A program made the translations under genes and the position numbers. From the IMG/VR virus record IMGVR_UViG_3300028030_000001, positions 19,397 to 83,396 of that record: DNA of 64,000 nt, one strand, 5' to 3'. The notes under the pieces were generated by a model. That model did no database searches and was not told where the DNA came from. It saw only the letters and a program-made list of their open reading frames with translations. This document shows, one piece after another, positions 31,762 to 49,160 of this stretch. The stretch comes from a virus. Numbering within the stretch: position 1 is the first letter of the stretch; every line of letters begins with the position of its first letter.

Positions 31762-33294
31762 TTACAGAGTTTTAACAAAATTTGTTGAAAAAGAAATAGG
31801 TGATACAAACTCTTCCAACAAACTTTTTAACTTGTACCGATTCAACTTCTTCGGTACAAGTCTTCCAAACGCATCAGCATTATGCAACTTGGACTTCAGA
31901 ACATCTGAAGTCAATCTGTTACATAAATTCATTGATGCATTATGGTCTGCATTATCTTCATATCCACATTGAACACATTTGAAATCTTTTTGTGTCAAGC
32001 GATTCTTTCTGTCTATAAATCCACAATCAGAACATTGTTGAGACGAATATGAAGCATGAGTTACATGAACTCTGATTCCTAACTTTTCTCCAATTCTTAC
32101 AAGAGCATTCTTAACACTACTTAAATGAAGAAGTTTAGAAAGTCTAATCCATTTGATTCCAAACTCTTCACAAAAACCGAATTTATCTTTGAGTAACAAA
32201 TCTTCAACGACTAAATCTGTTACTCCTTTATTGCTTAATGTTCTTAGAATATTGGAGCAAAGATAATCAAAATAACCTTTCAATCTCCTATGGATTTTCT
32301 TCAGTTTCTTTAATTGTCCAGAGTCAAGATTTTGATAACCAATCTCATCAAACTGTTTCAAAAGTTCAATCTGTTTCTTGATAAAATTTCTATCAAAGTC
32401 AAATTCAGTTCCATCTGAACACACAGCAAAATTATGTTTCAGATTTACATCCAGACCAACAGCTCTGTAACACTCTGAAACGAAATCTGGGTCATCAGCA
32501 TTGCAGGTTGTAACTACATGTACTTTACTTTTGTTCTCTCTTCTAAAAATGAGAAACTCTTTTGCAATCAATTTATCTGGGGTATGATAATCAAAATTAG
32601 TCTGTAACGGCAGATAAATCCCGCCATAACCTTTCTTAAGTTTCAGATAAAGCCACCAATTATAAAGGCTATTTGTTTCATCTTGTACTATTTGAGCATA
32701 ATTTTTAGATGCTTTCAAAACTGCTTCATTCTTGTACTCAATCTTTCTAACATTAGATATTGCTCTTTGACGAATTTGTTGAGAAATCTTAACAATTCTA
32801 TCGAAATATGGTTTTGACTCGTAATAATTAAGTGCTTCCTGGAACCAATCATTTTTGGCAGATTCAAATTGTTCTGGATTTAAGTAAACCAAAAATTTGA
32901 TAAATTTGCTTAAATTAGTTGGCTTTTTTATTAACTTAAAATTTTTTACGTCTCCAACCTTATGTTTCTTGGTTTTTCTTTTGTAACGAGAAACTTTAAT
33001 GTCTTTCTGTATCTTTAGATTTACTTTCTTTAATTGAGCTTTAACACTGTTCTCATACAATCTAACTTGAAACTGATATTCTTTCTGAATATTACAAGCT
33101 GGGACTATATCAGAAGTAAACTGAGCATATTGTTGGAGTAGAACTTTCTTGTTCGTTATAAGACAAACAAGATTATCAAAGATATAATCATTGATTTTGT
33201 CTCGTAACCAAGTCAATTCATTAAAAACCAAATCAAGAACATCATTCTTGCTTTGATTCTGTCTGTATGCTGTATATCTTTGTGATTTAATCAT
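31762..33294 (-). CDS. tnpB: TnpB/Cas12f-like RNA-guided endonuclease (IS200/IS605/IS607-derived), no tnpA
   Basis: RuvC-I GLDVN, RuvC-II VVEDL, YSSQQCSDCG...FKCVQCG zinc finger and RuvC-III NADHNAS. Clearly more AT-rich than its neighbours. Confidence 0.9.
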   Translation of the reverse strand: MIKSQRYTAYRQNQSKNDVLDLVFNELTWLRDKINDYIFDNLVCLITNKKVLLQQYAQFTSDIVPACNIQKEYQFQVRLYENSVKAQLKKVNLKIQKDIKVSRYKRKTKKHKVGDVKNFKLIKKPTNLSKFIKFLVYLNPEQFESAKNDWFQEALNYYESKPYFDRIVKISQQIRQRAISNVRKIEYKNEAVLKASKNYAQIVQDETNSLYNWWLYLKLKKGYGGIYLPLQTNFDYHTPDKLIAKEFLIFRRENKSKVHVVTTCNADDPDFVSECYRAVGLDVNLKHNFAVCSDGTEFDFDRNFIKKQIELLKQFDEIGYQNLDSGQLKKLKKIHRRLKGYFDYLCSNILRTLSNKGVTDLVVEDLLLKDKFGFCEEFGIKWIRLSKLLHLSSVKNALVRIGEKLGIRVHVTHASYSSQQCSDCGFIDRKNRLTQKDFKCVQCGYEDNADHNASMNLCNRLTSDVLKSKLHNADAFGRLVPKKLNRYKLKSLLEEFVSPISFSTNFVKTL

Positions 33295-38681: not shown

Positions 38682-38743
38682 GTTTCGTCTCCTTTAGTGT
38701 GTGTAGCAGGTGTCACAATTTGTGACACCTGCTGTAGCTCAAC

Positions 38744-39025
38744 TTATGATTCAGTAATGTAATCCAGTTTCAGAGTCCATCCACGAGGCGTGTGAAGCCA
38801 CGTTACATCCAGAGCCGTGTTAGGCCGCATTGTAGGAACGAACAGTATTGCGTCAGGTCTTTCGAGCCTTGGAATAATGGACATAATATGGCCGTCAATA
38901 TAGACTCGGATTTGTGATGGACTTGTTCTGAGTATATGTGATTCGTTGTCAGAACATGGCTCGATGTCTGACAGTTTCACAGCCTCACTGGTTACGACAA
39001 TACAATCGTTTTTTGATACTTTCAT
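38744..39025 (-). CDS. Hypothetical early protein
   Basis: CACGAAAGGAGAC RBS. Confidence 0.55.
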   Translation of the reverse strand: MKVSKNDCIVVTSEAVKLSDIEPCSDNESHILRTSPSQIRVYIDGHIMSIIPRLERPDAILFVPTMRPNTALDVTWLHTPRGWTLKLDYITES

Positions 39026-39087
39026 GGTTTGTCTCCTTTCGTGTTAAGATAGTATAGTGTTTACGTTATGCCACCGGCATAATTTAT

Positions 39088-39747
39088 TTATTCTGGTAAA
39101 TGAAGCGGCCCTATAGCGAACCTGATTTCAGGGTTGAGATAGGTGTGGTTCAGAGAGTTGACTGAGCCGTAAATCAGTCCGTCCCTGATTTGTGTCAGTT
39201 CCATATTCGGGGTTTCATATGTTTTTGTTACTTTCACGGCCATTTTTGTAATCGTGTTCAGATAATCAGGATTAACCTGAATCGGTACGGAATCCTTGTC
39301 TGATTCATCATACGTTTTGAAAACGTACTTGTAATCAGGCAATGTCCTGTAGTGTGTTTTTGATTTGAAAGTCGATATATTTATGTCCTTGTCAATAGAC
39401 GTAACCGAAACTGAATCGTTAGTGTTAACGGAAACGAGCAGGGTTTTGACAATAGGCAAAAGAGCTTTCTGGTACGAGCCTGAAGCTTTTATGGCATTAG
39501 CCAGGATTTTGGCCGGGATCGGGATCGGAGTCTCTGGTGGATCGGTATGCTTTATATCAGGTTCAGGAAATTCCTGAAGCATATCCTGACACTCGTGGAT
39601 GTTTGCGAACGCCATAAAATTTCCGTGCGGGATTGCGATTAAGTGGTGAGTTTCAGAATCGTAATAAAGGAATTTGAACTCCGATTCCTTGTGGTTTGCG
39701 ATTATAGTCAGAGCTTCGGCTGTCTGTGTTGGGATGATGAACTGCAT
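39088..39747 (-). CDS. Possible sliding-clamp (beta-clamp-like) fold protein
   Basis: LPDYKYVF...VNPDYL resembles the clamp motifs FPDYxxV and FNxxYL. Confidence 0.4.
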   Translation of the reverse strand: MQFIIPTQTAEALTIIANHKESEFKFLYYDSETHHLIAIPHGNFMAFANIHECQDMLQEFPEPDIKHTDPPETPIPIPAKILANAIKASGSYQKALLPIVKTLLVSVNTNDSVSVTSIDKDINISTFKSKTHYRTLPDYKYVFKTYDESDKDSVPIQVNPDYLNTITKMAVKVTKTYETPNMELTQIRDGLIYGSVNSLNHTYLNPEIRFAIGPLHLPE

Positions 39748-39780
39748 AGTATTGTCTCCTTTCGTGATATGTTGTGTGTT

Positions 39781-39809
39781 AGTATAGTATATTGTTTACG
39801 TTCTGTCAA
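39781..39809 (-). promoter_or_regulatory. Strong sigma70-type early promoter
   Basis: TTGACA-GAACGTAAACAATATAC-TATACT. Confidence 0.8.
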
Positions 39810-40332
39810 CAAACATTTTCAAGTTTTGTTTCTACTTCATAAACTTCGCCATAATAAGTCTCAATTTCTTCTTCTATCAAGTCATCGAGCTTACTATGTG
39901 CCTCATCCGAATCTGAAGCGGTGACTGTGAATGTTTCCTGTGTGAAGTTGAACGGATCATCTTCATCATGATAGAACCTGACTATGAACTGAAATTCGTG
40001 CATGATTTTGCCTCCTTGTGTTATGTTTTTATCTCTCTTATGAGTTGTTTCACTTTCTGGTACGAACCTGGTTCGTACCACCAATCCTCCCCTGTAAGGT
40101 TGTTAGATATAGCCTGTAACACGAACTCTTTTGCATTGTTAAGCAACTGGAAATAAGCCACCTGTTTCCCGTTGTGCAGGCAAGTTACATAGTATGTATG
40201 ACCTGCCTCATGTATTCCGTAATCCATGTATGTCAGGCCATCTACAATTATGTGCCTGCCGTAATTCATGTGAATCTTGAAATTTTCTTGCTTAAAAGGT
40301 TCGTCTGGTATAGTATCATGTAGAATAGACAT
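39806..40332 (-). other. Two small early genes (39806..about 40003, acidic; 40021..about 40332)
   Basis: Each has a GGAGG RBS before an internal ATG (MHEFQ..., MSILHD...). Confidence 0.5.
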
Positions 40333-40363
40333 AATTTTACCTCCTGTAATATATGGTGTTGGT

Positions 40364-40636
40364 ATGGACGAAAACAAACCTGATTTTATTAGATATATTT
40401 CCTGGATTGCTCCGTTACTTGTCACAACAGTAATCGTCATCTACAATCTTATGTATGCAGTCAAAGCTGTATCAAAAATCGAGGTTCGACTTGAACAGCA
40501 GTTAGAGCGCATAAGAAGTGTAGAGCAGGAGCAACGGGACGCTGAAAAGCGTAATCATGTACATTACACAGAACTCAAGATAAAACTTGAGCATGTCGGG
40601 AACTTGTGCTGTTCTGAAATAGATTCGAACAAGTAG
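40364..40636 (+). CDS. Single-TM coiled-coil protein, lone plus-strand gene in the early region
   Basis: MDENKPDFIRYISWIAPLLVTTVIVIYNLMYAV followed by heptads. Fills a gap between minus-strand genes. Confidence 0.55.
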   Translation: MDENKPDFIRYISWIAPLLVTTVIVIYNLMYAVKAVSKIEVRLEQQLERIRSVEQEQRDAEKRNHVHYTELKIKLEHVGNLCCSEIDSNK

Positions 40637-40735
40637 TTGACATATTCTGTGCCTTGTTGTATTGTAGTTGTGTGTTTACGTCTCCTTTCGTTCACGCATA
40701 CGATCCTCCTCCGTATGTGGGCCGGTAATGCAATG

Positions 40736-41917
40736 TTACCGGCCAAATTTGTTTTGTAGAAAATCATTAACAATCTGTTTCACTTCATATTTTTCCGGTG
40801 AATCCCACCAGTTCCTTCCATTGTAACCTTTACTGATCAGAATCGAGACCAGTTTCCGAGCTTTGTTAAAAGTGGACAGTCTCACGACCAAGCTTCCTGT
40901 ATCAAGCAAGATTACGTTCCAGGGATGTTTAGTGTCATGATCTGCTTTGTATATTCCGTAACAACCGTAAACGTAACCGGAAACTTTTGTAGAATATTGT
41001 TTTGTGTTGCTAATGTGTGTCACACAGAAAGTTTCTTTTTTCTTCTTTTTACCATAATTTACATTCTTTATTGTCACGTTTGAACCTCCAAGTACCTGAT
41101 TTATCTTTATAAGTGTACAGTGTTCCATGATACTTCATTCGTTCCTTTATATAGTTATAGTCGATTGGTTTGTATGGTTTTACTGGATAATCAGGAACGA
41201 TAGCGTATGCGAACCAGAACAGCATTAAAACGTAAAACAGAAATATAGAAGCGATTACTATATTTTTTATGTGTTGCATGATTTACCCTCTCACGAAAAA
41301 GTTTGAGTAATATTCCTGTAACCCTCTATAGTTTCCTTGCTTGTACATCTTGTATGCATTTATCGGTTTCGTTACTGGTGCAGATACTCTTTTGTAACCT
41401 GCTTTAGTAACTGTTTCGTATATGTACTTGAACAAGTTTACGTTAAACTTCTTTTCTGTGTATTCTTCTTTTTCTTCTTCAGTTAGTGGTTCATCTTCTT
41501 GCCAGATAACGAATACGTTATCTTGATGTGGACTTGGTTGTGAGTGTGACGTGAAGTGGCACTGTTTCGGTATGGATTGTAAGTGTTTGTGAAGTTCGTG
41601 CGGGTTTATGTCAGTTACGTCTAACGACTTAGTAACTGATTTAGTCTTTGGCATGTTTCGGTTTATTTTGTTAATCAGCTTGTTAGCGGCATAGATTATG
41701 TAATCTGCATGTACCTGGTCACTCATGATTTAAGCTCCTCATACGTTTTGTCTATAAGTTCTATAGCTTTTTCCAGATTTGTGAAATCTTCATCATTAGG
41801 AACGCACTTCGTTCCGTCTGAAGCTCTACAGGCAAGAATCTGTTCCATAGCCTCTTTAGTAATCTGCAACGTATGAAACAGTAGAGCGTATGGAGTGTTT
41901 GATGTGTTGTTCTGCAT
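40736..41917 (-). other. Cluster of small early genes (40736.., 41049..41279 with a TM segment, 41283..41726, 41723..41917)
   Basis: Co-oriented, overlapping short ORFs. Confidence 0.5.
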
Positions 41918-42055
41918 ATTTTTACTCCTTTCATAAAGTGGGGCAGGAACGGTTATGTATGTTGGTTTGTTCCTGCCCTACCACACACAGGAGACACTTA
42001 TAATGTTTTGTATGTTGTGTCAGGTGTCACAATTTATGACACTGTTTGATATGTT

Positions 42056-42787
42056 TCAGGCAGGAACGATTACATAACCTGCCTTCCTGAACGCATTAAC
42101 CATCATTTTTTCAGGATTATCAGTAAAAAACGTACTATGCTCATGCATAGGCAAATACTTTGTCATGTCATAAAGTTGTTCAGCTACCGCTTCAGATTCT
42201 GTCAGAATATCTCCATAAATCGGAATCGTTTCAAGGTCTGCTTCAGTAACAGACCTTTCTTCTGATACGAACTTTGACACGACCATCCACGCATCCGAAT
42301 CACAGCATGTTTCCGATTCTGTAAGCACTTCCGCTACATATTCCTGAATATTTATGCTTTTTAATGTGAGATATGCTGTTATATCCTGTGTTACCGCTTG
42401 TACGAACGGAGTAGCTTCTCTCAGAAATTCTGATAGGTTCAAATAATGTTCAGCTACCGGACTTGTAGATATTATATCGTGATATATAGAAGTTATCTCA
42501 CTGCACGGGCCATATTTTCTGCCCCAGGCACAGTTATTGAGGCAATCATGATATGATGGTACTTCCACACAGAACGGGCATATATCAGAATCGTAATTGT
42601 ATATCGGGTCTGTTATGTAACAGAGTATGTTTTTGATAAAGATCGGAAGTGAATCGGGTTCGGATTCGATGTGTTGTTGGACGATAGTTGAGTAGAAGTG
42701 TTTTCCTATTTTGTTGTCGATATACTTCTGGATATGTTTCGATTTCTGTTTCATGAATATAGTAGCGACTGCTTTATGTGTTTGCAT
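42056..42787 (-). CDS. Cys-cluster protein, paralog family copy 2
   Basis: FMKQK...DSDICPFC...CLNNCAWGRKYGPC...SIY...PEKMMVNAFRKAGY. Confidence 0.7.
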   Translation of the reverse strand: MQTHKAVATIFMKQKSKHIQKYIDNKIGKHFYSTIVQQHIESEPDSLPIFIKNILCYITDPIYNYDSDICPFCVEVPSYHDCLNNCAWGRKYGPCSEITSIYHDIISTSPVAEHYLNLSEFLREATPFVQAVTQDITAYLTLKSINIQEYVAEVLTESETCCDSDAWMVVSKFVSEERSVTEADLETIPIYGDILTESEAVAEQLYDMTKYLPMHEHSTFFTDNPEKMMVNAFRKAGYVIVPA

Positions 42788-42951
42788 AGTTCTATAGTCT
42801 CCCTATGTAATTGTTTGATTCGTCTCTGATTTCGATTACGAACTGGTTAGTATCTGTTTCAGTTACGGTATATGACCAGTTGTTGTCCTCTGACTGGATT
42901 TGTTGTTTAACTTGTTCGGCTTGTTCGTATGTAGGGAAGTATGTTGTATAA

Positions 42952-43323
42952 TCAGGTATTAATGGCATAGTCTGTGTCCTCTACATGGTCTTCAAGATAA
43001 TCAGTTATCGAATCGTAAGCGTAATCTTCTTTGAGTCTGTCCTTTACTCTTTGGTATAACGAATTCTCAATCAGACAGTAACCAAACTCTTTACCAAATT
43101 CGCATTTATGGCAATGAAAGGCGTCTGTTACATACTTTATACAGAATGGACATATTGTAGTGTCATACTGTTCTGCCAGGTTTCTAGTATTGTTTACAAG
43201 TTTTTCGGCTATATCAGGGTTTTGTTGTAGAAATGTTATAGTTATGTCTGAGGCAAAGGCAGGTTCATCGAGCATAGACGCTTTCCATTTCATAAACTGG
43301 ATTGCTTGTGTTGTGGTGTACAT
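42952..43323 (-). CDS. Cys-cluster protein, paralog family copy 3 (short form)
   Basis: FMKWK...DTTICPFC...CHKCEFGKEFGYC...SLY. Confidence 0.7.
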   Translation of the reverse strand: MYTTTQAIQFMKWKASMLDEPAFASDITITFLQQNPDIAEKLVNNTRNLAEQYDTTICPFCIKYVTDAFHCHKCEFGKEFGYCLIENSLYQRVKDRLKEDYAYDSITDYLEDHVEDTDYAINT

Positions 43324-43424
43324 AATCTGTCTCCTTCTGTGTGTTGTGTGGTGTGTGTGTTGTGTGTGTTATATGTCATAATTTGTGACACTTGGTGTGT
43401 GTTGTGTTGTGTTTGTGTGTTATA

Positions 43425-43516
43425 CGCCCCAGATTCGCTCAGAATCGTTTTATGTGACTGATGTATAGTCTGGCATGTTTCTGGAGCGTGCGTTGATTCT
43501 GAGCGAATCTGGAGCG
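43425..43516. repeat. Long hairpin element, copy 1
   Basis: Arms CAGATTCGCTCAGAATC / GATTCTGAGCGAATCTG. Second copy at 46705-46795. Confidence 0.8.
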
Positions 43517-43524
43517 GATCGGGG

Positions 43525-44121
43525 TTAATATGTGTACTTGTCCTGAAGCTCGGCTACAAAGGATTCACACTCTTCATCGAGCTTGTCTGTGTCGGCGTCT
43601 GGACACTTTTCATCCAGTTCGTCAAGGAAATCTTTGACAAGTTCTCGTATGTTCTCAATGTGTTCCTCTACAATATCTCTTGCCTCATGCTCTATGTAGA
43701 GAGCAATGGCTGTCATGCCGTTGTTTTCCCTGGGATTGTCACCGATTCCGGCGTTTTCATAGGCTTGTTCAAGTTCGCAGGAATGAAGATACCATGTATC
43801 TTCTATCTCTTTTGTGTAGATGGGTGTGTTCGAAGCGGCATAAGATATGATTGTGTCGAATATATCTTCCGGTATGCCTTCTTCCTGCGCTAATTCGTCA
43901 AGTTCGTCATAAGTGTCTGGCATGTTCGTGAGAAAATCATCGACCACTTCCTCTGCCGTGTCCTTTACTCGTTGGTTGAGTGTATCCTGTATTTCTACGA
44001 GTTGGATATTTTCTGGCCTGGTTTCTCGATTGATTTCGTGGAAAGTGTTTCGTTGCTCGGGTGTAAGGCTGTTTATGAGGTAATCATAGGCTTTGTAGGT
44101 GATGTTTGCATAGTGTTCCAT
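43525..44121 (-). CDS. Highly acidic early protein, possible Ocr-like DNA mimic
   Basis: Very D/E-rich. IISYAASNTPIYTKEI resembles Ocr IHMAADNAVPHYYADI. Strong promoter immediately upstream. Confidence 0.5.
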   Translation of the reverse strand: MEHYANITYKAYDYLINSLTPEQRNTFHEINRETRPENIQLVEIQDTLNQRVKDTAEEVVDDFLTNMPDTYDELDELAQEEGIPEDIFDTIISYAASNTPIYTKEIEDTWYLHSCELEQAYENAGIGDNPRENNGMTAIALYIEHEARDIVEEHIENIRELVKDFLDELDEKCPDADTDKLDEECESFVAELQDKYTY

Positions 44122-44157
44122 AGTTTTTGTCTCCTTTCTTGTTGTGTGTTGCGTGTT

Positions 44158-44186
44158 AACATAGTTTGTTGTTTACGTTCTGTCAA
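44158..44186 (-). promoter_or_regulatory. sigma70-type early promoter abutting a palindrome copy
   Basis: TTGACA-GAACGTAAACAACAAAC-TATGTT, with a palindrome at 44188 just upstream of the -35. Confidence 0.75.
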
Positions 44187-44205
44187 GTGTCACAATTTGT
44201 GACAC

Positions 44206-44484
44206 TCAGTGAATTGTGCTGATGGCTATTAGTGGTTCCCTGGTTGACCTGTCCTGAATCTCGATCACGTAACCTTCCATATAGTTGAAGTCTTTTTCGA
44301 TTCGGATTTTTCCTTTCGAATGTTCTGAAAGGATTCCAAGTTCACGGAGTGTTTTTGCTATCTTTTGAGAAGATATATCAGGGTCAAAGTGTGTTAGCTC
44401 TGCTATTGGAAAATAATTGTTCCAATACCATGAATTGTCTGAATCTCTCCATGCATCTATTGACAGAATCTTAGGTTTTTTCAT
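44206..44484 (-). CDS. Hypothetical early protein
   Basis: AGGAG RBS; SIDAWRD..W.WN motif. Confidence 0.6.
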   Translation of the reverse strand: MKKPKILSIDAWRDSDNSWYWNNYFPIAELTHFDPDISSQKIAKTLRELGILSEHSKGKIRIEKDFNYMEGYVIEIQDRSTREPLIAISTIH

Positions 44485-45542
44485 AGTTTTTTCTCCTTTT
44501 ATTTCAGGTAGTTATAAAGTTTTGGTAATATGACGGAAATAATTTGCGTTTTTAGAAATTTTTGTATGAATCTCCGTTAGTTATAAACTAACGTATAAGA
44601 ATGACCATTTACGGAACGTAAACAGGTTCGGTTTTGTTAATGATTTTGGACTGTTGTGGATTGGGGACGAAATGTGTCTTTGTTTGCTTTATGTAAAAAA
44701 GTGTGATTTGTTAATGTTTGTAAGTGTGTGTTTTTATTGTTAATGTTAGAAAATGTGTTAGAAATTTTTGAAAACTAACAATGCCTGCACATTTTTATGT
44801 TTTCAGACTGTAAATGTGTTTTGTTCGTGTTATGTGCTGTTGTAGTGTTGTCAAAATGTTTGTATGTTAGATTTAGTTAATTTTTTCTGAATAATGTAGA
44901 AGAAAATAAAAAAATTGTATATTTAGGTGTTTAATTTTTTATTTATATGGGAAGGGGTAGGGAGTCAAAAACGGGATACCTCGCATTATTTAAGTTCGCA
45001 CAATTCTTGCTTGAATTGTTAAGTGTACGAAACCATTACTAAATAAGCTTGTTAAAAGTGGAAATATCGTTTACAGTTTGTAAAAAAGAGGTCTTTTAAA
45101 AATAACGGATTTTTCACTTTCTAACATTCGAGCTTTTTACACATAGTTTCATATAGAAAATTAAAGAAATAGCGTTTACAAACTGTAAAGTGAAAAACGT
45201 GTGCAAAAATTGCATATTAACAATTTCGTAACATAAGTTTTATATAAGAAATTCGTTAGAAGTTGTTTACGGATTGTTTTTGTGTTAAATTTGTGTTAAA
45301 TTTGTTTTTGTAAAAAATGGCCGATTTTTTCTTGTAAAATCAGCCGCTTACATTTTCTAACACTTTTTCTAACATTTTTCTAATCCGTCTTCTGATACAC
45401 TTTTTGATACATTTTCCGGCACGACTCGGAATCAGAAACTGAGTTTTGCATAGAATCACGAGCGGAAACTGGGTTTTGACAAGAATTCTGGCCGGAATCG
45501 GGAACGGAATCGGAACGGGAACGGGAACGGAATCTGATTAGC

Positions 45543-45772
45543 TCGGAATCGGAAAATTTGCATAGATTTTTAGTAAGAAAATTCAACACTTACAATTTCA
45601 GTGCGAATTTTCTAACACTTTTTTTCATTTTCTAACACTTTTTCTAACTCGAATCGGAATCGGAAAATTTATATAGATTTTTAGTAAGAAAATCAAACAC
45701 TTGCATTTTCTATGCGAATTTTCTAACACTTTTTTCCATTTTCTAACACTTTTTCTAACCCGAATCGGAATC
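45543..45772. repeat. Tandem duplication of about 111 bp containing TTTTCTAAC iteron-like units
   Basis: Units start at 45543 and 45654, with a third partial unit at about 45765. More TTTCTAAC copies near 45118 and 45353-45375, and inverted copies near 44745-44765. Confidence 0.85.
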
Positions 45773-45841
45773 TGATTAGTTCCAGGTTCAGTCAGGAAAC
45801 TTGCATAGGATCAGGATCAGGAACTGAACCTGGAACGGGAT

Positions 45842-45982
45842 TTAATTCTTGACGGGGCATATTTCAGCCCATGAGCATTTGCATATTCCAAGCATACATT
45901 TCATGAACCGCTCTGAAGAACAGAGCGGAACATATTTCATAGTTTCCGAACCATCTTTTATGTGAACATACTTAATACTCAT
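45842..45982 (-). CDS. Small Cys-rich protein (46 aa)
   Basis: Not in the ORF track. MSIKYVHIKDG...CSSERFMKCMLGICKCSWAEICPVKN, with an AAGGAGAC RBS. Confidence 0.45.
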   Translation of the reverse strand: MSIKYVHIKDGSETMKYVPLCSSERFMKCMLGICKCSWAEICPVKN

Positions 45983-46047
45983 AACCTGTCTCCTTCCGTG
46001 TGTCACAATTTGTGACAGTCTGCATAAACCGTCACAATTTGTGACAG

Positions 46048-46311
46048 TTATGCGTTCTTAATCACAATACGGTCGTCTTCCCGCTCTATAACATAGTCGG
46101 GATAGTCTGGATAACCGTATTTAGCCTCTTCACCGGACGGCTCCCCGATATAGACCTGTACCGGGGCGGGATTCTGCCCCCATCGGTCACATTCATAGCA
46201 GAAGTTGCCATAATCATCCATAAGTTCCATTACGGAATTGAATGATATTGCCGGACGGGGATAAGGGCATGTGTCCGGCAGGACTGAGAATTCAGGTGCA
46301 TAAATTTTCAT
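46048..46311 (-). CDS. Hypothetical early protein flanked by palindromes
   Basis: CACGAAAGGAGAC RBS; YGYPDYPD motif. Confidence 0.6.
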   Translation of the reverse strand: MKIYAPEFSVLPDTCPYPRPAISFNSVMELMDDYGNFCYECDRWGQNPAPVQVYIGEPSGEEAKYGYPDYPDYVIEREDDRIVIKNA

Positions 46312-46418
46312 GATTCTGTCTCCTTTCGTGTTAGTGTCACAAATTGTGACAAGCGTGGATTCAGTAGCTGATTTTGCATAGAATCCTGGCCTGTCACAAT
46401 TTGTGACGATATTTCAGG

Positions 46419-46679
46419 TTACATAGGGTTCCAATTCAAACCCTTAGCCTTATCCATAGAGATTGTATCTCTATGGAAGGATTCCGGCATACCTGGAATT
46501 CTTGTGTCTATCCCCTCTTTGCGGAGCTTTTCAGCCCGCAAGGACGAGTTGATAGACTTACCATCATACGGACACCATGCTAACCACATAGTGCCCATGT
46601 TTTTGAATACCTTGCCGCCTGAGACGACAAATGATCTTGTTTCACCCTTGGTCACTTTCGCACCATCGTGAATTTTCAT
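46419..46679 (-). CDS. Hypothetical early protein
   Basis: AAAGGAGAC RBS. Confidence 0.55.
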   Translation of the reverse strand: MKIHDGAKVTKGETRSFVVSGGKVFKNMGTMWLAWCPYDGKSINSSLRAEKLRKEGIDTRIPGMPESFHRDTISMDKAKGLNWNPM

Positions 46680-46704
46680 ATTATGTCTCCTTTGTGTTTA
46701 ATTT

Positions 46705-46795
46705 GCCCTCAGATTCGCTCAGAATCGGTTTTATGGCCTGGGACATAGTTAGGTTTATGTCTTGGCCTTGAGTCGATTATGAGCGAATCTGGGGC
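46705..46795. repeat. Long hairpin element, copy 2
   Basis: Same arms as 43425-43516, different centre. Confidence 0.8.
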
Positions 46796-46824
46796 GGGTT
46801 TGGGTGGGGGTTTATGGTAAGATT

Positions 46825-46891
46825 TGGTCAAGGCAGGAGTCGAACCTGCAAAGGCACAGATTAGTGCCGCTCCGTACCGCACGGCATGACC
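46825..46891 (-). ncRNA. Non-canonical tRNA-like RNA
   Basis: Acceptor GGTCATG/CTTGACC-A (one mismatch), T-arm GCAGG-TTCGACT-CCTGC, and GGCAC/GTGCC stem with a 6-nt loop. D-arm is weak. Confidence 0.5.
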
Positions 46892-46978
46892 GTTTCAGGG
46901 CGGAATTACTCCAACTGCCCCTACACCGGAAACTTACCGGCATAGCTCTGTATTAACGCCCTGTGAGCGTGGCGTATA

Positions 46979-47050
46979 GTATCCAGGCACACCGAGCCAG
47001 GTTTGTCCCTTCTCAGGGGCCTGTACAGGATTCGAACCTGTCCTGGATAC
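46979..47050 (-). ncRNA. Permuted tRNA-like (YrlA Y-RNA-like topology) structured RNA candidate
   Basis: Closing stem GTATCCAGG/CCTGGATAC encloses the T-arm ACAGG-TTCGAAT-CCTGT and a GAGA-capped stem. Confidence 0.4.
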
Positions 47051-47192
47051 CTGTAAAGTGTCATAATTTATGACGGTTAGCATATTTTTAGCCGTCATAA
47101 ATTATGACACCTTGAAGGTGTCTGGTTATGAGCGCAGCCTTGCCTGCGCTCGGTTGTATGGATTAAGCCCCTGGCAAGGCATGGGCATATTA

Positions 47193-47443
47193 TTACTCAG
47201 AATAATAGTCTGCTCCACAAACAGGGCAGATCATATAGTCATCTTCATGTTTGCCGCCTTGGTCCACATTAGTTTCAGAACAGCAAGCATAACAAAAAGT
47301 ATGTCCGCAGGAAGGGCATATCTTTTCTGCATACTCATGGCCGCCGCCAGGACGGCAAGCCACCGTAAACCAGGGGCAGCAACCTGCCACGTCAGGGCAG
47401 GGTCCGTTAGTCGGGCATTCTGTTCCGCAGTATATCGTTTTCA
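47193..47443 (-). CDS. Cys-rich zinc-binding protein
   Basis: CPSCGH, CYACC and CPVCGA motifs; AAAGGAGAC RBS. Confidence 0.6.
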
Positions 47444-47588
47444 TTTTTAGTCTCCTTTCAATTTCAGGCACAGGGGCAAGGTGCGCCTATGATTTTATTA
47501 CCCTGCCTTGCCAGGGCATAGTGCCATAAATTATGACACTTACTTGTTGTGTAGCAAGTGTCATAATTTATGGCACTATGAGGTGTCT

Positions 47589-47789
47589 GTTACAAGGCGC
47601 AACATGCCGCAAGCCTTGTTTCCGGCATAGTGGGTTGAGTCTGGATATTATTCAGACTCAACCCATATTATATCAAGTCCGTGTTCATCGGACTGGACTA
47701 TAATCGGAGTGTAACCTTTCATTGCACATTCCCTCCGTGTTAAAGGTTACAGGACGCAAGCCGCAAGTCCTGTTTCCGGCATCGGGTTG
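47589..47789. repeat. Two copies of a pseudoknot-forming motif of about 45 nt (47589-47638 and 47746-47789)
   Basis: Shared scaffold with compensatory changes in stem 1. Confidence 0.7.
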
Positions 47790-47878
47790 TTACCCTTTCA
47801 TTAGCCTGTCACAATTATGACAGGCTAATGAAAGGGGGCAGCCCCGTGGAGCGGGGCTGCCTGTTATGGAAACCGGCT

Positions 47879-48439
47879 CTAAATGAGGCCGGTTTCCCTC
47901 ATATGCGCTTCTATCGTATGATAGAAGCGCACCTTATCCTGAGAGGACAAGGTGTTAAATGCCGCAAATAGTGCGGCAACGTCGTTATTAGAGGCAGGCT
48001 TGTTGTCTGCCTCTTTTGTCTCATTGTTAGAGGCAGACTTATTGTCCGCCTTTTTGCCTGCCTTTTTGAGCTTAGTAGGGGCAGGTTTATCACCTGCCTC
48101 TTTTGCCTCTATTACAGCCATTGCCCGTTTAAGAGCAGTAGTGTGATTTCCGAATGAGGCAGGGTTTATCCCTGCCTTAACACATTCTCTGTATGCTTTA
48201 AGGGCGGCACTCTTGTACCGCCTCAGTAATGACCGGCTTTTGCCGGTCAATTCCTTTTGAAGTGTGGAAAGCTCCCTTTCCGCAACTTTATCACCCTGCT
48301 GGCACACGAAATGCCAGCACAAGGAACTGAGATTAGATACCGCACGACCTGCCTCTTGTGCGGCAACCTTAATGTCGTTAATCTCTATCACAGGGCGGCA
48401 GCCCTGAGTTTCGTCGTAATACTGTTTTAGAGTCTTCAT
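47879..48439 (-). CDS. First gene of the leftward (early) arm; basic hypothetical protein
   Basis: GGAGG RBS before MKTLKQ. Internal ADNK(S/P)ASNN duplication. GC-rich hairpin just downstream, at about 47837-47861. Confidence 0.65.
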   Translation of the reverse strand: MKTLKQYYDETQGCRPVIEINDIKVAAQEAGRAVSNLSSLCWHFVCQQGDKVAERELSTLQKELTGKSRSLLRRYKSAALKAYRECVKAGINPASFGNHTTALKRAMAVIEAKEAGDKPAPTKLKKAGKKADNKSASNNETKEADNKPASNNDVAALFAAFNTLSSQDKVRFYHTIEAHMRETGLI

Positions 48440-48489
48440 GGTAATACCTCCTGAGTTTTGGTTAATGTTTAATGCCATTGCCTGATTAG

Positions 48490-48505
48490 TGTTTCACGTG
48501 AAACA
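48490..48505. promoter_or_regulatory. Perfect parS palindrome TGTTTCACGTGAAACA
   Basis: Exact canonical parS, intergenic, enclosed by a 24-bp inverted repeat (48469-48492 / 48522-48545). Confidence 0.85.
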
Positions 48506-49093
48506 AGCTGTCACAATTATGACACTAATCAGGCAATGGCATTAAGACCATTGCACTTGCCACCTTGACACTATCCACCATTGTCAAGGTGGCAAGGTGC
48601 GCTTTAAGTGATTAGTGCAGGTTAAAGCGTAAACCCTGCAAGCGTCCAGTTATCCTGCTAACAGACAGATGATAATGGTCGCGTCTATCATTACCGCTTG
48701 CATCCAAGCTGGTACGATTGCAACCAGTTATCACAGCATTTAGCTACTTGTTACAGTAGCGTACCGCCTTGCTACGGTTTTACTGCTGCTACCGTCTGAA
48801 AGCTCGTATTAGCTTTCACAGCGCACAGCCCCTGTTAGTCCAGGCGCACTTTACCTGTACTCAGCCGCCGTCTCACTTGACGGATAACCGGATTATCGGG
48901 CGGTTGAATCCGCCCGTTCTATGTCAAAGAGCGTGCAGGGAAAAATTACTGTCACAATTATGACAGTTGAGACAAGCTGTATCAGCCCCCTGCCCGGCTA
49001 ATCAGCCATGTTGCCTACACCCTTGTGGGTGAGTACCCACCTCTCCATCCACAACACAAAGACCAGATTTTCTTTACATAACGTAAACCAAAT

Positions 49094-49160
49094 CCCGTCA
49101 AACAACCGTTCCCGTCAAACAACCGTTCCCGTCAAACAACCGTTCCAGTCAAACAACCGT
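49094..49160 (+). repeat. Four tandem 17-bp repeats CCCGTCAAACAACCGTT upstream of the packaging genes
   Basis: Units at 49094, 49111, 49128 and 49145; the last is slightly degenerate. Confidence 0.9.

Follow-up and report, generated by a model that had tools for sequence, protein, structure and literature searches.

This study concerns a short repeated element in the genome of an uncultured phage from a deep-sea hydrothermal vent. The genome comprises 83,396 nt, and a 127-nt overlap between the two ends of the record implies that it was assembled as a circle. All coordinates are positions in the window, the whole stretch of 64,000 nt that was analyzed, which corresponds to bases 19397-83396 of the virus record. 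According to a search of sequencing runs, the sole public run with this stretch is a hydrothermal-vent metagenome DNA run, probably its source, and no RNA run holding the stretch is listed. The source run contains a single contig identical to the stretch, so population variants are not available from that run.

The genes form two arms that diverge from a control region at ~48.5-49.3 kb, with the portal (PF05136 as a precomputed assignment, and a weak PHROG match) and the large terminase encoded in the rightward one. The leftward arm, devoted to early functions and replication, encodes a family-A DNA polymerase, a SNF2 helicase, a ligase, a primase-helicase-like protein, a methylase, and a TnpB-like protein. 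The last of these (31762-33294, minus strand, 510 aa) resembles TnpB/Cas12f, with a match to PF07282 at 1.1e-14 and a weak match to OrfB_IS605. Many relatives of the portal were found at 35-42% identity on contigs of 64-94 kb, and one at 61% on a contig of 8,036 nt; a tblastn search with the portal against cultured-phage records gave no match, and single-protein locus searches with the portal and with the product of the gene upstream of the module returned none. The portal gene precedes the large terminase gene in this phage (49886-53510), whereas in the relatives checked (e.g., L126, L072, and L076) the two matches are in the opposite order, with the terminase upstream.

The region from 44.5 to 49.3 kb is gene-poor and full of perfect, strand-symmetric palindromes. 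One palindrome, GTCAYAAWTTRTGAC, has 12 matches where 0.10 are expected, all in the early arm (38712-47574) and mostly just ahead of the ribosome-binding sites of early genes; shorter 16-bp versions occur at about 47809, 48510, and 48951. The relatives have hairpin-plus-ribosome-binding-site repeats of their own ahead of small genes. Four tandem 17-nt repeats are found in the divergent control region (49093-49160), and an AT-rich gene-free tract contains a 111-nt tandem duplication of 91% identity (45543-45764). Just upstream of the first leftward gene, TGTTTCACGTGAAACA (48491-48506) matches the chromosomal parS consensus, and this parS-like site shares a 24-nt inverted repeat with a 16-bp form of the recurrent palindrome. 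By eye, two tRNA-like pieces with canonical T-arm letters can be read on the minus strand (46825-46891 and about 46975-47045), the first with a 6-nt anticodon loop. The tRNA-like match, 700 nt from the module, scores 17.9 bits with the Rfam tRNA model (cut-off 29). ARAGORN reports no tRNA or tmRNA gene in the whole window and Rfam gives no tmRNA match there, and a tmRNA reading of the module was discarded for want of either match.

The module is situated in a spacer of 407 nt (47472-47878) between two minus-strand early genes, and almost every gene of the early region around it is without a known relative. The features of the spacer and its borders, in minus-strand order, are as follows.

47879-48478, minus strand: upstream gene, encoding a 199-aa orphan protein; first gene of the leftward arm
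47837-47861, minus strand: G+C-rich 10-bp hairpin, then CCCTTTCATT; terminator-like, just after the upstream gene
47793-47836, unstranded: long hairpin abutting copy 2; its tip carries a 16-bp form of the recurrent palindrome
47747-47789, minus strand: module copy 2, the same block as copy 1 with a 3-nt deletion and four substitutions (76.0 bits)
47749-47773 (arms 47749-47755 and 47767-47773), unstranded: 7-bp helix of copy 2 with an 11-nt loop; compared with copy 1, two pairs differ in both partners
47760-47780 (arms 47760-47763 and 47777-47780), unstranded: candidate second helix of copy 2, reduced to 4 G-C pairs
47631-47665, unstranded: long hairpin abutting copy 1; its minus-strand 3' arm gives the CAACCC box
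47590-47637, minus strand: module copy 1, consisting of the CAACCC box and the conserved block to ...TGTAA (78.9 bits)
47592-47619 (arms 47592-47598 and 47613-47619), unstranded: 7-bp helix of copy 1 with a 14-nt loop
47604-47628 (arms 47604-47609 and 47623-47628), unstranded: candidate second, interleaved helix of copy 1, 6 bp, without covariation
47517-47580, unstranded: hairpin with 28-nt arms, one mismatch, and 25 perfect pairs, containing two inverted copies of the recurrent palindrome
47193-47444, minus strand: downstream gene, ~146 nt from copy 1, encoding a Cys-rich 83-aa protein that belongs to a small conserved family

The 199-aa upstream protein has no homologs besides itself, and its AlphaFold model is unusable (mean pLDDT 46.5). 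The 83-aa downstream product contains 14 Cys residues, and its family shares the motifs HEYAEK, FCYACC, NVDQGGK, and CGADYY. Seven database homologs and eight viral loci represent this family, and the module is upstream of the gene in none of those loci. A homolog with 76% identity is encoded on a 1,086-nt contig. The Cys-rich gene is bracketed by 21-nt inverted repeats (47169-47189 and 47496-47516) that are 86% complementary. Nothing above the cut-offs was obtained for the neighbors with PHROGs, or with Pfam for all ten neighbors; PADLOC assigned no family to any of five neighboring products, and an atlas look-up returned only unnamed viral clusters and a weak DUF3102 lead (0.91, 42% of members). 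In 80 portal-linked loci, tblastn gave no match for the leftward genes close to the spacer, so the region lacks synteny with known relatives. The minus strand carries both flanking genes and every family-matched ORF of at least 100 aa between ~10.0 and 48.5 kb, and the spacer should accordingly be transcribed in the sense direction.

Two smaller observations concern the same stretch. Between the module copies, the minus strand contains a 24-codon frame after GGAGG (47648-47722), whose stop codon is in the loop of the hairpin at 47631-47665 and which has no PADLOC match. At the 3' end of the upstream gene, 21 nt (47947-47967) match the first half of copy 1 at 81% identity and might be a third partial copy; this stretch is coding and the similarity is near the chance level.

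The two copies and their paired stem

On the plus strand, copy 1 reads ACAAGGC (47592-47598), gcaac, ATGCCG (47604-47609), caa, GCCTTGT (47613-47619), ttc, CGGCAT (47623-47628), and GGGTTG (47632-47637). Copy 2 reads ACAGGAC (47749-47755), gcaa, GCCG (47760-47763), caa, GTCCTGT (47767-47773), ttc, CGGC (47777-47780, extending as CGGCAT to 47782), and GGGTTG (47784-47789). The letters and coordinates given for both copies in the initial annotation are thus correct. On the minus strand, which is the gene-sense strand, each copy consists of the CAACCC box, 1-3 bases, and a block running from ATGCCGGAAAC to TGTAA. The copies are direct, with a unit of ~45 nt and 154 nt from start to start, and the sequence between them is unrelated. 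The borders of the module are sharp, and there are only two copies in the whole 83,396-nt genome.

A MAFFT alignment, confirmed by direct counting, gives 36 ungapped columns, one 3-nt indel, and four substitutions between the copies. All four substitutions are transitions within the 7-bp stem, and the other 32 ungapped columns are identical. Five pairs of this helix are invariant and two are changed on both sides (A-U to G-C, and G-C to A-U), confirming the earlier statement that the first stem differs at two base pairs with pairing maintained. When four changes are placed at random, the probability that all fall in stem columns is ~0.017, and that of two correct compensatory pairs is ~4e-5; the latter value implies that the 7-bp helix has been kept paired. 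A shuffle control for the pairs, in which 106 of 500 reach the observed value, is uninformative with two sequences only. Changes affect 4 of the 14 stem columns and none of the 22 others. As noted previously, the linkers and the flanking GGGTTG are the same in both copies, the 3-nt indel aside. The 22 identical columns suggest that loop and flanks may be constrained at least as tightly as the stem.

The compensatory changes point to a nucleic acid that probably pairs with itself, and not to a duplex site for protein binding. For a duplex site bound by a dimeric protein, matching changes in the two half-sites would not be predicted, and a symmetric double change beside an invariant loop appears to fit a folded single strand better than such a site. 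The module is a real two-copy element of a single uncultured phage genome, and its hairpin was presumably either selected or re-templated. Elsewhere in the genome, a second two-copy element of ~99 nt (43427-43525 and 46707-46805) has the reverse of the module pattern, with conserved self-complementary arms and unrelated centers.

The long hairpins noted earlier beside the copies are real (47517-47580, 47631-47665, and 47793-47836). Each copy begins 0-4 nt after a long hairpin, via the common CAACCC box, and the hairpin at 47517-47580 begins 9 nt downstream of the copy 1 block on the minus strand. The spacer is among the most structured stretches measured (folding z of -17 for the minus and -13 for the plus strand). 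Of the 17 hairpins with at least 9 perfect pairs in the interval 38-49.3 kb, 9 lie within 47058-48038, and several consist of the recurrent palindrome. These 17 hairpins offer no wobble pairs by which a strand could be chosen, so that strand inference failed because of their perfection; mismatches read by hand in longer imperfect repeats pointed to both strands.

The second helix and the search for relatives

The initial annotation described the motif as an H-type pseudoknot and took its covariation as a sign of a selected structure. The latter holds for the 7-bp stem, in which two of seven pairs are changed on both sides, and fails for the second helix, in which none of six pairs varies in this way. 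Four pairs of the second helix are invariant, and its two outer pairs are lost in copy 2 through the 3-nt deletion while the other arm is unchanged. The topology itself is at chance level: when the genome is shuffled by a first-order Markov model, exact interleaved stems of 6+7 bp joined by short linkers appear 0.72 times per shuffle on average, and 38 of 100 shuffles contain one or more. The real genome has another such site far from the module, and ~12 distinct sites are found in 653,678 nt of related phage loci. Interleaved 6+7-bp stems are thus to be expected about once per phage genome by chance, and two compensatory pairs between paralogous copies are proof that a hairpin has been kept, but not that a pseudoknot exists. 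On these grounds the pseudoknot assignment is not supported.

Folded under a nested model on both strands, the isolated motifs are no better than shuffles (z of -0.9, -2.1, -0.5, and -1.9). Each stem alone, as a simple hairpin, has an energy of -5.7 to -9.6 kcal/mol. The crossing loops of an H-type fold would be 3 nt and 5 nt on the minus strand, and on the plus strand a loop of 3 nt would have to cross the 7-bp stem; by the usual loop-length rules, the minus-strand lengths suit such a fold better. The hairpin energies and the comfortable minus-strand loops make a pseudoknot possible, though unproven, and the G+C-rich second stem may add one to the hairpin.

At gathering scores, Rfam has no match in the 64-kb window. 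Even at E<=10, no riboswitch or ribozyme family overlaps 47589-47789 in a search of 46800-48200, which yielded only chance miRNA-type hairpin matches at the edges. The earlier remark that no family could be recognized is in keeping with this, and the specific classes suggested at the same time (antitoxin decoy, exonuclease block, riboswitch, and ribozyme) are left unsupported, since no Rfam family covers the motif at that threshold. A blastn search with 46700-48500 against cultured-phage records gave no match. A pattern of 16 fixed bases found 48 foreign stretches in viral contigs, none with the module architecture. Eight of these have a reverse-complement 5-mer within 20 nt and fall into two sequence families (5 and 3 loci); they were set aside because sister loci (L040; L011, L030, and L046) change one side uncompensated, and one family reads as a gene start on the other strand. 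With a pattern of 18 fixed bases, 102 matches were obtained in metagenome contigs, one with a downstream complement in a different layout. The same pattern gave 90 matches in 89 stretches of species-representative genomes, three with a complement and none with the architecture. Four loci from one gammaproteobacterial MAG (L250, L261, L290, and L294) represent a dispersed REP-like long hairpin repeat unrelated to the module. The module itself was rejected as a REP/MITE-like dispersed repeat, as there are only two copies in the genome and no true copies among the 48, 102, and 90 pattern matches.

A covariance model (R1), built from the 7-bp stem and the sequence, scores only the two copies, in the whole genome as in the window. 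The next best match has an E of 0.28 in the window and of at least 1.8 in the 80 portal-linked loci; the whole records of 10 relatives gave no matches, and eight loci with homologs of the downstream gene gave nothing better than E 0.44.

Candidate roles of the module

We tentatively prefer a reading in which the module would be a cis-acting RNA hairpin on an early transcript, directly 3' of the long hairpins, affecting processing, stability, or read-through. Since both copies lie immediately 3' of a long near-perfect hairpin via the CAACCC box, the likeliest job is one performed together with the hairpins, and since the neighboring and family-matched genes are on the minus strand, a cis-acting RNA hairpin on the early transcript is the simplest reading. 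The minus-strand early transcript would carry the module as a recognition hairpin, the loop being read by sequence and the stem by shape. Its core would be the 7-bp helix closing an 11- or 14-nt loop, whose letters are invariant except for the 3-nt indel. Double-strand-specific cleavage could leave the module as a compact folded 5' end that stabilizes or marks the downstream RNA. Alternatively, the module could be a nut/put-like site modulating read-through. If it acts as RNA, it would provide a small, testable handle on early-transcript control in uncultured vent and sediment phages. The RNA reading is limited by the number of copies, two in one genome, and by the palindromes, which are identical on both strands and in DNA. 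Against it also counts the absence of the module from the 80 portal-linked loci, the records of the 10 relatives, and the eight loci with downstream-gene homologs. A bolder version has a slim chance in our estimate: the copies would be the first members of a new ~40-nt cis-RNA with a pseudoknot, found in an uncultured family of 80-90-kb phages. Such an RNA would lie at the 3' foot of long early-transcript processing hairpins and bind a protein of the host or of the phage (RNA polymerase, a nuclease, or a defense factor) via the invariant loops.

The same compensatory changes would suit hairpins in DNA equally, and a DNA-level hairpin or cruciform in single-stranded or supercoiled DNA, serving for example as a priming, recombination, or packaging signal, is somewhat unlikely but deserves weight. 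Its setting would be a 5-kb control region with an AT-rich iteron tract, a parS-like site, and tandem 17-nt repeats, within the gene-poor stretch of strand-symmetric perfect palindromes described above. A 7-bp stem with an 11-14-nt loop would nevertheless make a poor cruciform, there are only two copies, and no link to a known origin, priming, or packaging signal was found. A neutral origin of the pattern is considered a little less probable again. The module would be a 45-nt duplicate, 154 nt away, that acquired two point mutations and then underwent one template switch copying an arm from its partner, the second stem being coincidental. Two studies report that hairpins can be created and maintained by template switching during replication (PMC8794818, PMC7202029); an arm copied from its partner could thus acquire compensatory changes without RNA selection. 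That the genome keeps many long palindromes perfect, that the second stem is no more than chance would give and has lost pairs in copy 2, and that no homolog was found in the collections and loci searched are all in line with a neutral duplicate. The distribution of changes (4/14 stem against 0/22 other columns; P ~0.017), by which loop and flanks seem the more tightly constrained, is harder to reconcile with it, and so are the sharp borders and the common junction box beside a long hairpin in both copies, which look organized.

A true H-type pseudoknot RNA, acting as a nuclease or defense decoy, as a block to exonucleases, or as a small RNA that binds a ligand or cleaves itself, would seem improbable. 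Both stems can coexist without overlap in both copies, the loops are invariant, and the stem energies and sterically plausible minus-strand loop lengths given above are compatible with it; these points have to be set against a topology expected 0.72 times per genome by chance, a second stem that lacks covariation and shrinks from 6 to 4 bp by an uncompensated deletion, and the lack of any Rfam riboswitch, ribozyme, or antitoxin family at E<=10. The copies are also not in tandem, and their neighbors have neither a PADLOC defense match nor a Pfam match above cut-off. Very improbable, in our judgment, is a pair of tiny minus-strand genes for leader-type or micro-peptides, even though each conserved block is an exact ATG-to-TAA frame of 12 and 11 codons (MPETRLAACCAL and MPETGLAACVL, with ATGs at 47628 and 47782), the 3-nt indel is in frame, and the 3' border of the block is the stop codon, conserved letters at the other end reaching 7-9 nt upstream of the ATG as far as the CAACCC box. 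A ribosome-binding site of the AAGGAGAC type usual in this phage is absent ahead of either ATG, and the start codon is inside the candidate second stem. Coding would moreover leave the two compensatory pairs unexplained, with one of three changed codons synonymous. Read by eye, the motif was also rejected as a sigma-70 or sigma-54 promoter (poor hexamers and wrong spacing) and as a CRISPR-repeat mimic, DGR repeat, att site, or IS200/IS605-type end.

Comparison with known systems

The put and nut sites of lambdoid phages are small cis-acting structured modules of early transcripts, typically two per genome, in which the stem is conserved by pairing and the loop is read by sequence. They are situated just downstream of each early promoter and ahead of terminators, one per operon, and make RNA polymerase resistant to these terminators. 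HK022 put is described in PMC9378689 as a processive antitermination RNA site of a lambdoid phage. The module resembles these sites in its two copies, in a stem kept by pairing, and in an invariant loop; a comparable function would be one of the two candidates proposed here. It is located in the early arm, 0.7-0.9 kb from the start of that arm. On the other hand, the two copies share a single spacer behind the first gene, and the strongest terminator-like hairpin is upstream of copy 2, not downstream, which makes a poor fit to nut/put logic. There is also no sequence or Rfam similarity between them.

Type III antitoxins (ToxI, CptI, and TenpI) and their phage-borne mimics have a repeat unit of ~36-45 nt that folds as a pseudoknot. 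Their repeats form head-to-tail tandem arrays beside the gene of a ToxN-family endoribonuclease. The size of the module unit is similar, but the copies are spaced by 154 nt for a unit of ~45 nt and are not in tandem, and no ToxN/AbiQ-type partner was found (PADLOC 0 for 5/5 products; Pfam 0 for 10/10). With no tandem repeats and no partner nuclease among the neighbors searched, the earlier suggestion of a type III antitoxin-like decoy finds no support.

The RNase III sites of T7 and the stabilizer of Bacillus phage SP82 exemplify the intercistronic hairpins at which early phage mRNAs are processed and the structured elements that stabilize the 5' ends so formed. The present phage likewise has long hairpins between early genes, and cleavage at them would be the corresponding step. 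The module has no sequence likeness to either system. Quasipalindrome correction by replication template switching likewise gives changes that look compensatory in both arms of a short inverted repeat (PMC8794818, PMC7202029). This is a mutational mechanism and not a function, and it leaves the invariant loop and the organized hairpin junction unexplained.

In T4-type phages, promoter-stem-loop cassettes are repeated intergenic regulatory elements of early regions. The early arm of the present phage is similarly punctuated by the recurrent palindrome, with the module among its copies. The module differs from such cassettes in being a separate two-copy element with a covarying stem and an invariant loop. 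It is an orphan member of a broad class, the structured intergenic repeats of phage early regions.
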